DNA of 64,000 nucleotides from Escherichia coli (lineage in GTDB: Bacteria > Pseudomonadota > Gammaproteobacteria > Enterobacterales > Enterobacteriaceae), in NCBI RefSeq assembly GCF_048403405.1, contig NZ_CP183129.1. One strand, given 5' to 3'. The notes under the pieces were generated by a model, which saw nothing but the letters and a program-made list of their open reading frames with translations, had not been told where the DNA came from and ran no database searches. A program made the translations under genes and the position numbers. Shown here piece by piece: positions 14,236 through 17,323 of the stretch (its first letter is position 1; every line of letters starts with the position of its first letter).

Positions 14236-14374
14236 TCTATCTGCCTTTTGGTGTTCATGCCTGAGACAGATAGCCTCAAGCACCCGCAGTTATTCTACTT
14301 AACTAAGATTTCCCCGCAAACCGTTTTTGTCCGGCACAGTAAATATCCAACTAAACCAATGGCGTTCGCTGTAT

Positions 14375-14554
14375 TTACCGCCAGTATTCAATGCACATGA
14401 CCGCCATGAACACCCCTAAAAAAAGGGCATTTATATGTCCAAACATTAATATCAAAACATCAATTTTTTCCATATACCTTGCTGTGAAGATGATGGGCAT
14501 ACATGATGCGAACAACCAGAACGCAACAAACAAAAACTGCAATGCGTTTTTCAT
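14375..14554 (-). CDS. Hypothetical small two-helix membrane protein (59 aa)
   Basis: ATG 14554 after GGGGGAA; MKNALQFLFVAFWLFASCMPIIF…LFLGVFMAVMCIEYWR; AT-rich island between hok and nin genes. Confidence 0.45.
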   Translation of the reverse strand: MKNALQFLFVAFWLFASCMPIIFTARYMEKIDVLILMFGHINALFLGVFMAVMCIEYWR

Positions 14555-14674
14555 TATTCCCCCTACAATCAATGTGCAATAACATTTAAACACACCTCAA
14601 TTTGGCCGGACATATAAATATCTAAACCAGAAAAAATCACTTACATAGCGTTACAAACTCTTTAGTCTAAATAT

Positions 14675-15661
14675 TCATCGTAAAACATCCTCCACGCTTA
14701 TCAGTCCATTTCGTTTCAGGTAATCCATCGCCTTCTCCGGTAATTTGCAGTCCGGCTGAGCTTTTTTCAGTTGACTGACCAGTCGTTTAACCCACATTGT
14801 TAATTCGCTAACCTGGTTACCTAGCGCTGGCGACGCTACTGTCTGTTCCAGAACGTCATCAGGTACTACCGGCTCTACTGCCAACTGACTGGCATATTTG
14901 TTAATGGTAACGATAAGCTCTTGCTCGGCCTCATCCAGACAATCACCGATACCTCGCCTGTCACCGTCAAAATCATCGAAATCGGCGCGAATCCTGGCAA
15001 CCTCCCGGATTGCGGACAACACCTCACCAGGAATTACCGGAGAGTTGCCCGATAGTGCATTCTGCTCCAGTGATGCCTTTACAAACCACGCGGCCTGAAC
15101 TATTACGCCATGAATCCAGCGCAAATCAGCATCGCGATCTTTCTTTTTCATCTTTTCGCCACTTAAAGCCTGGCTTATGTGGCTACGTACAAGGTCTTCA
15201 TGTAACACCTTCGCATCCTCAATGGTGAAACCACCAGGCAGGCGAGCCGGGGTTACATGAGGGTTGCCTTCCCCCTGACTCTGAAGCATGGCGGCGCGGT
15301 AGGCATTCCAGCCTCTCACCTCTGCAATAGCGGCAACATCATCGACCGCGTACATTTTAAGAGGGTTAGGCATTGGTTTTTCTTCAGATACTACTGGCAC
15401 TGGAGGGGCGGCATAAACAGGAATAACGTCCGCTTGCTCTTTATTGCTTTCATCCGTTAAAGCCCAGAATAATTTCCCGGCCGGATGTTTGAAAATATAA
15501 GCAACTGGTTCTGCGCTATCAGCTTCGCGCCGCTTCTGTAGCTCTGCTGCCATTGCGCTCACGACTTCAACTGGTGCCCTTGCAGCAAACTCTATGTTGG
15601 TGATAAGCTCATTAAGATATTGCTCGCTGGGATACTGTTTCTTATTGGTAATAGTGGTCAT
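14675..15661 (-). CDS. Hypothetical phage protein (328 aa) sharing N-terminal module with 16025..16432
   Basis: Long ORF; contains PVYAAPPVPVVSEEK also present in upstream paralogue. Confidence 0.7.
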   Translation of the reverse strand: MTTITNKKQYPSEQYLNELITNIEFAARAPVEVVSAMAAELQKRREADSAEPVAYIFKHPAGKLFWALTDESNKEQADVIPVYAAPPVPVVSEEKPMPNPLKMYAVDDVAAIAEVRGWNAYRAAMLQSQGEGNPHVTPARLPGGFTIEDAKVLHEDLVRSHISQALSGEKMKKKDRDADLRWIHGVIVQAAWFVKASLEQNALSGNSPVIPGEVLSAIREVARIRADFDDFDGDRRGIGDCLDEAEQELIVTINKYASQLAVEPVVPDDVLEQTVASPALGNQVSELTMWVKRLVSQLKKAQPDCKLPEKAMDYLKRNGLISVEDVLR

Positions 15662-16023
15662 GCTGTAGCCCCTTCTTGATATTTTTCAAACCAGAACACA
15701 ACCGGGTCAGATTTCATTTCAACCAATCCCATACGAACCAGCGCTTTGCCTTTCCCGGACGCAAGGAATTCACGACGACCATCACTGATAATTCGCCGAT
15801 AGTCTTCCAGGCTACTGCAATGCTTGTGCAGATTGCATGGGTGGCATGCCGGAACCATGTTGGATATATCGTCACGTTCCTGGTGAAGCATATTTCCATT
15901 AAAACGAATGACCGGTTTTACATGGTCTGCATGCCACTTTTCGCCAAGTTCACAGCCGCAATAAGCACAGCGACCGCCAAACTTCATGCGCAATTCTGCA
16001 CGTTGTTTTTTCGTCAGTGCCAT
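15658..16023 (-). CDS. HNH endonuclease
   Basis: CAYCGCEL…HADHVKPV…N…CHPCNLHK HNH motif; 121 aa. Confidence 0.8.
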   Translation of the reverse strand: MALTKKQRAELRMKFGGRCAYCGCELGEKWHADHVKPVIRFNGNMLHQERDDISNMVPACHPCNLHKHCSSLEDYRRIISDGRREFLASGKGKALVRMGLVEMKSDPVVFWFEKYQEGATA

Positions 16024-16024
16024 A

Positions 16025-16432
16025 TCAGTCTCCTTTGATGCCAGTGTTTACAACCTGGCAGGCCTCTTTGAGCACCCAGTCAACAGCGTCTTTCCATGCT
16101 CCGGTTTCGACTGGCGGATTTTCACGCTTAACCTTTTCATAGAAGCGCACGGCTTTAACCAGTCCTTCAGACACAACCGGCACAGGTGGAGCTGCGAATA
16201 GTGGTTTAGGTGATATCTCCGCACGTTTTGCGTATGCTTCAACTGTGTCAGGATTAAACAGGATTATGTTTTCGCCGCATTTCCACGCTATCGGTTCCGC
16301 TTCTAGCGATGCCAGTGCAATTTTGAATAACTCACCCTCTACCCGTGCCATCCCTGAATTCGTGTGGCATTTCGCAATCGCTATTTTTAATTTGGCTTCT
16401 TCGATTAATTGCTCTTTTGTTAATTCAGTCAT
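16025..16432 (-). CDS. Hypothetical phage protein (135 aa), paralogous N-terminal module
   Basis: Contains PLFAAPPVPVVSEG; stop abuts HNH gene. Confidence 0.65.
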   Translation of the reverse strand: MTELTKEQLIEEAKLKIAIAKCHTNSGMARVEGELFKIALASLEAEPIAWKCGENIILFNPDTVEAYAKRAEISPKPLFAAPPVPVVSEGLVKAVRFYEKVKRENPPVETGAWKDAVDWVLKEACQVVNTGIKGD

Positions 16433-16527
16433 TTTTCATTACCGCCCTTTCGGGCGGCCTCCTGATGTTCTGAGGGTGCAGAAATCCCTCCGGTTAAGGA
16501 TAAAATTTTTAACAGTGCTAAATTTAA

Positions 16528-16884
16528 TTATTCAGTTCTGGATTTTGTCGCCCTGCATATCCGCGCTTTCGCGTTACGCTCAATCTGAATTAACTTTTCT
16601 ATATTTTTCCGCCTTTCCTGTTCCTCCTGGCGCAATAGCCTTACATCATCTGCCAGTCTGGTTTCTCTTTTCGCCACAGAGAGCATCCAGTCAAACGGCT
16701 CCACAACTGCACCGCAGATTTTACAGCGGACCTGACGCTCTTTTTCGTCAACCCGAACAGAGGCGTGATGACAATATGGTCTTTCCGATGACTCATAAAG
16801 AAAATTAACCTGATTACGAGGGTCATCCTCTTTTACCGGAAATAAAACGATATTGCTTAACTCATCCTCTGGTTTTATTTCCAT
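16528..16884 (-). CDS. Hypothetical protein with putative zinc ribbon (118 aa)
   Basis: CHH…CKIC motif followed by charged coiled-coil-like tail. Confidence 0.55.
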   Translation of the reverse strand: MEIKPEDELSNIVLFPVKEDDPRNQVNFLYESSERPYCHHASVRVDEKERQVRCKICGAVVEPFDWMLSVAKRETRLADDVRLLRQEEQERRKNIEKLIQIERNAKARICRATKSRTE

Positions 16885-17323
16885 GCTCCTCTCCTTTGAT
16901 GCGAATGCCAGCGACGCGTAATGCGTGTTCTAGGTCAATCAGGTAAAGCCAACTGCCATTTTCTTTAGGTATCATGACATGTCGCTCATCTGCATTTATC
17001 GGGTGTCCATATCGAAGGTCGTAGCGAGTCGGTAATTGAACTTCCCGCGCTTCCAGTTCAGCAATACGCTTACTCCCATCAGAGATAACGCCTTCGTAAT
17101 ACTCACGCTGCTCGTTGAGTTGTGATTTTGCTTCTTCCAGTCCATCCAGCAAATCAGCGATAATATCCGCTTCCCGATGACGGATGTGACGCTTAAACGC
17201 AGCAAGAGCCGCATCACAATCCCGTTCAGCATTTGGGCTGTCCGGGATAGCCTGATACCACGCCAGCGTCGACTGATAGTTTTGTGCTGCCTCACGAAGC
17301 GCCTCATAGTTAACCTCTCTCAT
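16862..17323 (-). CDS. Hypothetical phage protein (153 aa)
   Basis: ORF overlapping neighbours by a few nt in operon orientation. Confidence 0.55.
   Translation of the reverse strand: MREVNYEALREAAQNYQSTLAWYQAIPDSPNAERDCDAALAAFKRHIRHREADIIADLLDGLEEAKSQLNEQREYYEGVISDGSKRIAELEAREVQLPTRYDLRYGHPINADERHVMIPKENGSWLYLIDLEHALRVAGIRIKGEEHGNKTRG

Follow-up and report, generated by a model that had tools for sequence, protein, structure and literature searches.

An HNH endonuclease gene forms a discrete cassette at an exact gene boundary between two mosaic genes of an Escherichia coli lambdoid prophage

Introduction

The mosaicism of lambdoid phages, including the insertion of 'morons', is familiar from the literature of Hendrix, Juhala and Clark: whole genes are present or absent, the borders coincide with gene boundaries, and short conserved sequences flank the exchanged units. 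HNH endonuclease genes are sporadic among lambdoid phages and apparently mobile (PMC12315714), nuclease genes have been located at boundaries of exchange between phages (PMC10448857), and Red-type recombinases are able to recombine sequences that are short and diverged (PMC3945230). Mosaicism has been reported for the ea22 genes, and DUF551 has been termed a portable domain (PMC10834534; also PMC7093339). Ea22 proteins possess a conserved K/R-G-E C-terminus whose significance was left unexplained (PMC7093339). The stretch of DNA analyzed here, hereafter the window, comprises 64,000 nucleotides of E. coli contig NZ_CP183129.1 (assembly GCF_048403405.1) and is part of a lambdoid (lambda-like) prophage. 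It contains a free-standing HNH endonuclease gene between genes for proteins of 135 and 328 amino acids (p135 and p328), both of which include the peptide AAPPVPVVSE. The locus as a whole is probably explained by outer genes of mosaic composition and by a precise HNH cassette that has spread via a conserved junction.

Results

Many E. coli chromosomes match positions 14300–16900 of the window with 100% identity, and at least 80% of this region is found in one place in 127 complete genomes. RefSeq annotation situates the region between replication genes and hokD, rem, DUF968, RusA, and Q. As the original prediction had described, three open reading frames (ORFs) abut on the minus strand with the HNH gene in the middle: the p135 gene (WP_000137948; 16025–16432), the 121-codon HNH gene (WP_001229301; 15658–16023), which matches PF01844 and phrog_2118, and the p328 gene (14675–15661). 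The overlapping or abutting stops and starts that had been noted also are present. The p135 stop codon TGA (16027–16025) is followed by one nucleotide and then by the HNH start codon ATG (16023–16021), and the HNH stop codon overlaps the p328 ATG as ATGA (15661–15658).

The borders of the HNH gene were analyzed with 80 IMG/VR loci that encode a protein at least 95% identical to the HNH protein of the window. At ~75 of the 80 loci, similarity to the window starts 0–23 nucleotides before the HNH ATG (mode −12) and ends 5–22 nucleotides after the stop codon (mode +12/13). The flanks of the gene fall into 14 upstream and 11 downstream classes that occur in at least 19 combinations. The gene upstream usually is DUF4014, and sometimes terminates in the C-terminal module X of p135 or in an Ea22-type '...GIRIKGE' end; the gene downstream nearly always is another member of the mosaic family described below. 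The insertion point is exact and is located between TGAT and ATG(AC) of a junction composed of a Shine-Dalgarno sequence, a stop codon and a start codon. The slot sequence reads ...AAAGGAGAnTGAT/ATGACnACT..., in which the slash denotes the border.

Natural alleles reveal both presence and absence of the nuclease gene at this one site between the same flanks. The junction is empty in L107 (...aaggaaagcTGAT/ATGACCACT...) and is occupied in L109 and ArgO145 (...aaggaaagcTGAT/ATGGCACTGACG...HNH...ggggctacgGC/ATGACGACT...). Loci L146 and L011, which are empty, and the window, which is occupied, provide a further pair with module X upstream. When the HNH gene was deleted in silico from the window junction, the resulting query produced a contiguous match in E. 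coli 631 over 87/87 nucleotides (90.8%), and positions 24–87 of the query gave a 98.4% match in further genomes; the natural empty junctions are at 1609394–1609480 of NZ_CP040263.1 (strain 631) and 2927250–2927313 of NZ_CP032515.1 (strain 118UI). In E. coli 631 and 118UI, one base separates the end '...IKGE' with its stop codon from a gene with a p328-type N-terminal module, with no HNH gene. These matches to the HNH-deleted junction were checked at the sequence level in L168 and L169, where the junction is empty. The insertion of an HNH gene that was originally proposed is upheld by these discrete, reproducible borders and by HNH-less junctions with the same flanks. The alignments identify the gene as an independent 362-bp cassette (15662–16023, minus strand) in an exact gene-boundary slot. 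The cassette adopts the ribosome-binding site that precedes it, supplies GAAGGGG as a new site for the gene that it displaces, and takes the ATG and following A of that gene as its own stop codon. By borrowing and supplying signals in this manner the cassette would preserve expression of its neighbors.

Elsewhere the slot is empty, or is filled by a 171-codon gene, by DUF4014 alone, by DUF4014 together with HNH, or by small ORFs. Loci L099 and L109, for example, have both flanks in common (86–93%) and contain different cassettes. The 171-amino-acid family has invariant residues E37, D40, E53, and K55, and fold prediction recovered the restriction-endonuclease-like fold with the D...(D/E)xK motif that typifies PD-(D/E)XK proteins, which makes the protein a candidate PD-(D/E)XK-fold nuclease. 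A comparison with PDB sequences yielded no match. The family (phrog_9263/631, no Pfam entry) is Enterobacterales-wide, with members at L005:1489–2004, L099:3428–3943, and L006:1648–2163 and none in the window; in Salmonella the protein sometimes is fused to an Ead_Ea22 (PF13935) N-terminus.

The tight translational coupling of the three genes in the window through the one-nucleotide gap and the ATGA overlap could signify a single functional system, such as a prophage defense or anti-defense module with HNH as effector and the variable proteins as sensors or decoys. Hypervariability of the neighboring genes and a weak likeness of HNH to PtuB and retron HNH effectors (PADLOC E = 2.8e-8, TIGR02646 E = 1.6e-4) are in keeping with this possibility. 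It nevertheless is highly improbable: the association is facultative, with at least 14 upstream and 11 downstream neighbors and a slot that is empty or otherwise filled elsewhere, every defense-family score falls far under its cut-off, no PtuA-type ATPase is present, and p135 and p328 have no PADLOC match.

The HNH protein belongs to the His-Me finger profile PF01844 (31.7 bits against a cut-off of 21.4, E = 1.8e-7) and matches phrog_2118, 'HNH endonuclease', with E = 1e-56. The catalytic D-H...N...H residues and two CxxC zinc pairs are present (C19, C22, D33, H34, N55, C60, C63, N64, H66, H68), and none of these residues varies among 22 distinct HNH proteins. Forty of 43 DNA alleles are intact, and a ratio of nonsynonymous to synonymous polymorphism (pN/pS) of 0.07 indicates purifying selection. 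The gene is intact and under selection, and is predicted to specify a functional nuclease. Two narrower assignments were rejected. A packaging-associated nuclease of the HK97 gp74 type does not match the position of the gene, which is between the replication genes and hokD/rem/DUF968/RusA/Q and not next to terminase genes. A Septu PtuB or retron effector does not match the scores for NF041761 (11.8 bits against a cut-off of 150) and TIGR02646 (21.8 against 52), and the neighboring genes are without a PtuA match.

Of 5,426 complete E. coli genomes, 384 (7%) contain the HNH gene, mostly as one copy. The gene is ~98% identical at the nucleotide level to ArgO145 gp11, the flanks of which are unrelated. 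In ~300 further complete genomes only the last ~63 nucleotides of the HNH query (15646–15708 of the window) are matched. In RM10410 (NZ_CP042350.1, L167:1384–1551), a 55-amino-acid chimera (WP_000207997) comprises an N-terminal helix module joined to the product of the last 14 HNH codons. The fusion point, between EAEP and V, coincides with the microhomology CCGGTTG. The chimera looks like the footprint of a deletion or loss of HNH.

According to the preferred explanation, HNH would be a free-standing nuclease gene of selfish or semi-selfish character that is passed between co-resident lambdoid phages when these recombine at the conserved junction. Cleavage by HNH of junctions that lack the gene would probably stimulate that recombination, and junction-mediated cassette exchange itself would need no nuclease. 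True endonuclease-driven homing is plausible, if somewhat less likely than not. Several observations weigh against this explanation, most of which lend credence to an alternative in which HNH is moved solely by general Red/RecA recombination at junctions and the nuclease serves the phage, for example in recombination or in competition with other phages or host DNA. Non-nuclease cassettes (DUF4014 and small ORFs) reside in the same slot with the same junctions, and the junction alone may explain mobility. The borders are sharp: similarity among HNH loci is gone within ~12 nucleotides on both sides and no co-conversion tract or gradient is visible, in a comparison of flanks that are different modules and so could not show a gradient. 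Synonymous-site divergence among HNH alleles is ~12%, and HNH therefore seems to be an old resident and not the product of a recent sweep; in combination with the low pN/pS, this fits a useful gene that has been kept for a long time. Moreover, short and diverged homologies are sufficient for Red-type recombinases (PMC3945230). Two further points against the preferred explanation are that a protein of 121 residues leaves little room for a separate sequence-recognition domain, and that a linker role for the shared motif, considered below, depends on a structural model of low confidence (mean predicted local distance difference test, pLDDT, of 63). Passive movement alone is a serious rival, if rather unlikely. 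Two unrelated nuclease folds recur in the slot, HNH is patchy (7% of genomes) and is found in many flank combinations, and truncated remnants are about as common as the intact gene, which fits a cycle of gain, decay and loss. A more ambitious proposal is that the slot nucleases, whether HNH or PD-(D/E)XK, recognize or cleave AAAGGAGAnTGAT/ATGACnACT itself, and that the resulting breaks copy cassettes into empty junctions and seed the shuffling of Ea22-like and DUF551 genes. This proposal is improbable; if true, the locus would be a nuclease-driven hot spot of diversification for early phage proteins that influence lysis and lysogeny.

The boundary between p135 and HNH in the window (AAAGGAGACTGATATG, 16021–16036, minus strand) is a Shine-Dalgarno sequence AAGGAG that also codes for K-G-D, followed by a stop codon, one nucleotide and the next ATG. 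The pattern AARGGAGNNTGANRTG matches the window once (16021–16036) against 0.21 matches expected, and at least one match arose in 17 of 100 shuffles, so that the match is not significant alone. The pattern instead is meaningful because of its recurrence across loci: the same junction occurs at 50/50 K/R-G-E/D termini in related loci, with a start codon within 12 nucleotides every time, and these 50 termini derive from at least eight unrelated protein tails. KGE also is the commonest C-terminal tripeptide among 1,138 unique ORFs of the fetched loci (L001–L166). The p135 protein ends in ...IKGD and its relatives in ...IKGE, and thereby possess the terminal K/R-G-E signature of Ea22. These patterns identify the Ea22 tripeptide as the translation of the boundary junction AAAGGAGAGTGA-N-(A/G)TG, which consists of Shine-Dalgarno, stop and start, and attribute the K-G-D end of p135 to junction DNA rather than to descent from the Ea22 family. 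A simple reason thus is offered for the K/R-G-E C-terminus of Ea22.

The ten consecutive residues AAPPVPVVSE are identical in the two outer proteins, as had been noted: the first copy extends from F79 to G90 of p135 (F79-AAPPVPVVSE-G90; 16163–16198, minus strand) and the second from Y83 to E94 of p328 (Y83-AAPPVPVVSE-E94; 15380–15415, minus strand). In pairwise alignment, residues 45–89 of p135 and 50–93 of p328 are identical at 21/49 positions (43%; E = 4e-5, BLASTP, single comparison), and both proteins contain a second short conserved block, AEP-I/V-A-W/Y, that precedes the motif by ~35 residues. The motif therefore is more than an isolated coincidence. The similar N-terminal region that was claimed for the pair exists as a shared layout but not as shared sequence, as BLASTP detected no similarity either between the first ~44–49 residues of the two proteins or between the segments that separate the AEP block from the proline motif. 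Furthermore, seven of the ten identical motif codons differ between the two copies in the window, each time synonymously at the third position, and therefore it is the peptide that is conserved and not the DNA. The segments after the motif were unrelated in profile–profile comparison (hhalign probability 0.2%). An equivalence of 'AWKDAVDWVLKEAC' in module X of p135 with 'GWNAYRAAMLQ' of p328, which had emerged from a MAFFT alignment, was dropped in view of this value.

The original prediction also entertained duplication of one gene. The outer genes are adjacent and co-oriented and have in common the motif and the layout of helix, joint, segment and joint, as would be anticipated if one gene had been duplicated recently in tandem and had diverged, and if HNH had inserted between the copies. 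Identity over the common stretch is limited to 21/49 residues, however, with no alignment elsewhere; the synonymous sites of the motif are saturated; p135 and p328 each are far closer to genes of other genomes than to each other; and the segments after the motif are unrelated. In addition, the motif occurs in many unrelated contexts. A recent tandem duplication consequently is most improbable, and the comparisons instead assign p135 and p328 to a large mosaic family as two of its members, and not as copies of one gene. Both motif copies in the window have the rarer serine (TCT) variant ...VVSE (16169–16171 and 15386–15388), most relatives displaying ...VVPE (10 vs. 58), and the exact ...VVSE form (GTx TCT GAA) is confined to window-type loci among the fetched loci. 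The presence of the serine variant at two sites 780 bp apart could reflect a short gene-conversion tract, or chance.

The p135 protein is composed of an N-terminal helical module (residues 1–44), joint 1 'ALASLEAEPIAW', a variable segment B (to residue 78), joint 2 'FAAPPVPVVSE', and the C-terminal module X (residues 90–135), which ends in '...GIKGD' at the stop codon. The p328 protein consists of an N-terminal module (residues 1–49), a joint 1 remnant 'SAEPVAY', a variable segment, joint 2 'YAAPPVPVVSE', a segment that ends in joint 3 'GWNAYRAAMLQ' (residues 117–127), a long middle region, and the C-terminal module D (residues 281–328). PHROG profiles tie both proteins to one loose family set (phrog_660, 5117, and 60): p135 matches positions 3–143 of the 193 in phrog_660 (E = 9.5e-51), residues 281–328 of p328 match positions 146–193 of the same profile, and the first 97 residues of p328 match phrog_6847 (E = 2.3e-55). 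Relatives of p135 recovered by tblastn and protein searches match only parts of the protein, with breakpoints at residues ~63, 78, and 88–96. The mosaic relatives of p328 number at least 7,972, with coverage from 24% to 100%, and most of them end in DUF551. The points at which coverage of relatives breaks off coincide with the joints.

The grammar of the family was read from 40 distinct relatives out of the IMG/VR loci. At least five unrelated N-terminal helices all end in joint 1, ...IALASLEAEP(V/I)AW, and at least five unrelated B segments all end in joint 2, L(F/Y)xAPPxPVV(P/S)E. Alternative modules follow joint 2, several of which end in joint 3, GWNxCRxAMLQ. In the relatives, joint 2 connects at least 14 types of upstream segment to at least nine types of downstream module, and codons on the 5' side of the joint vary in step with the module upstream, those on the 3' side with the module downstream. 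These patterns identify AAPPVPVVSE as joint 2 of the family, conserved as a peptide and acting as a crossover point. An AlphaFold2 model of p135 of low confidence (predicted template modeling score 0.36, in addition to the pLDDT cited above) was used for secondary structure only, without a fold search. The model includes helices at residues 6–44, short strands at 48–77, and helices at 89–132, the first of which spans 89–104; residues 77–85 have pLDDT < 50. The prediction is consistent with the motif being a linker between segments. Joint 3 in the form GWN(A/D)CR(A/E)AML(Q/H) (15281–15313 in the window) is preceded by at least seven unrelated variable segments, and module X in some relatives runs on as KEAC/RAAMLKG or KEAC/CAAILGKAD, which resembles joint 3.

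Scans of p135 and p328 against Pfam (E ≤ 1), NCBIfam, and PADLOC provided no family match, and the Pfam scan did not detect the ead/Ea22-like signature PF13935 / IPR025153 in either protein. The p328 protein has module D in place of the C-terminal DUF551 (PF04448) that most of its close relatives carry. The p135 and p328 proteins are classified as Ea22-like/DUF551-associated early-region proteins of lambdoid phages in which unrelated segments are interchangeable between short conserved joints. The 5' part of the p328 gene (15200–15661) matches 246 places on E. coli plasmids of ~86–110 kb at which DUF551 proteins are annotated; these plasmids may be phage-plasmids.

Module D of p328 (GNQVSELTMWVKRL...LISVEDVLR; 14678–14821, minus strand) also forms the C-terminus of the ArgO145 114-codon gene downstream of HNH and of a single 187-codon gene that is present at the corresponding position in L098, L094, L095, and L116. 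The product of the latter gene corresponds to residues 1–124 of p135, a 14-residue linker, and the last 48 residues of p328. The backbone of L098 is that of the window, with blastn homology at 16900–16058 (93.7%) and 14821–14675 (92.5%), the latter aligning with L098 3418–3564. Between the breakpoints at 16058 and 14821, a segment of 1,236 bp in the window (14822–16057, minus strand) has a counterpart of 42 bp in L098-type prophages. The segment contains the last 11 codons of p135, HNH, and codons 1–280 of p328. The expectation that relatives devoid of HNH would possess one continuous gene was satisfied in that the 187-codon gene exists, but the difference amounts to 1,236 bp, which embraces HNH and the 280 codons downstream, and not to HNH alone. 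No relative was found in which removal of only the 362-bp HNH cassette restores a single ORF across both genes; all empty junctions retain the stop codon, one nucleotide and the start codon.

An ancestral 187-codon A-B-X-D gene that was split by HNH into halves represented by p135 and p328 would account for the continuous gene with the same backbone flanks in the four loci, and for the matches of p135 and the C-terminus of p328 to successive parts of phrog_660. The idea nevertheless is very doubtful. The 1,236 bp that stand opposite 42 bp include 280 codons for a complete N-terminal and middle region with its own start codon, helix module and joints; the '...IKGD/E' end of module X with its stop codon is a normal gene terminus in many contexts; the empty junctions comprise two separate adjacent genes without fusion; and complete genomes seldom contain the continuous form, with two full-length matches compared to 127 genomes with the arrangement of the window.

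The RefSeq/PGAP coding sequence for p328 corresponds to the last 205 codons only (14675–15289) and starts at M125, inside the GWNAYRAAMLQ joint. The full 328-residue form is the more likely of the two because the product of the upstream 124 codons matches phrog_6847 and because the ATG of the long form overlaps the HNH stop codon. Beyond p135, a neighboring gene of 153 codons (16862–17323) is named ead/Ea22-like by RefSeq. It reads through ...GIRIKGE (on to EHGNKTRG) and overlaps the start of a 118-codon gene (16528–16884; phrog_1621), the ATG of which is preceded by the same AAAGGAG. This Ea22-like cluster sits between the replication genes and Q; ea22 of lambda is in the exo-xis region.

Discussion

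The locus furnishes a nucleotide-exact, reusable slot in lambdoid and Shiga toxin (Stx) prophages together with natural empty and occupied alleles, by means of which HNH homing in temperate phages becomes directly testable. There also is a gain in annotation: two 'hypothetical proteins' are placed in an Ea22-like/DUF551-associated mosaic family, the p328 gene is seen to be truncated in RefSeq, and HNH is recognized as a facultative cassette. The general picture of phage mosaicism is unchanged, and the locus is a tidy example of this known phenomenon, neither a gene duplication nor a new system.

The free-standing homing endonuclease genes of T4-like phages, mobE and segA-G (PMC2790892, PMC2988022), resemble the HNH gene in that a small nuclease gene, an HNH gene in the case of mobE, is located between intact genes, is patchy among related phages, and exhibits presence/absence polymorphism at one site. 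In contrast to those genes, no co-conversion tract was seen here, the 121-residue protein is without a recognizable DNA-binding extension, and homing would be deduced from sequence. Moreover, the setting is a temperate lambdoid prophage, and the insertion point is a generic junction of ribosome-binding site, stop and start that is shared with non-nuclease cassettes. Nuclease genes at the edges of recombined blocks, accompanied by domain shuffling, also were described by Barth et al. (2023) (PMC10448857), although in ICP1, T4, and other lytic phages and for the T5orf172 and IPA-HNH families; no 'HEG island' (HEG, homing endonuclease gene) of high identity is bracketed at the locus studied here.

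The Ea22 proteins of lambda and Stx phages (PMC7093339, PMC10834534) display mosaic blocks, alternative C-terminal domains and the conserved K/R-G-E end that recur in the present family, and phage EC.W1-9 encodes a true Ea22-type protein whose C-terminal domain is module X of p135. The p135 and p328 proteins differ in lacking the Ead_Ea22 signature and in being encoded between the replication genes and Q instead of in exo-xis.

The borders at gene boundaries and the short conserved sequences that flank the exchangeable unit are shared with lambdoid boundary mosaicism and with morons. In distinction from these precedents, the boundary in the current case is resolved to a single nucleotide (AAAGGAGAnTGAT/ATG). 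It also determines that the protein encoded upstream ends in K/R-G-E/D, and it delimits a slot in which nucleases recur.

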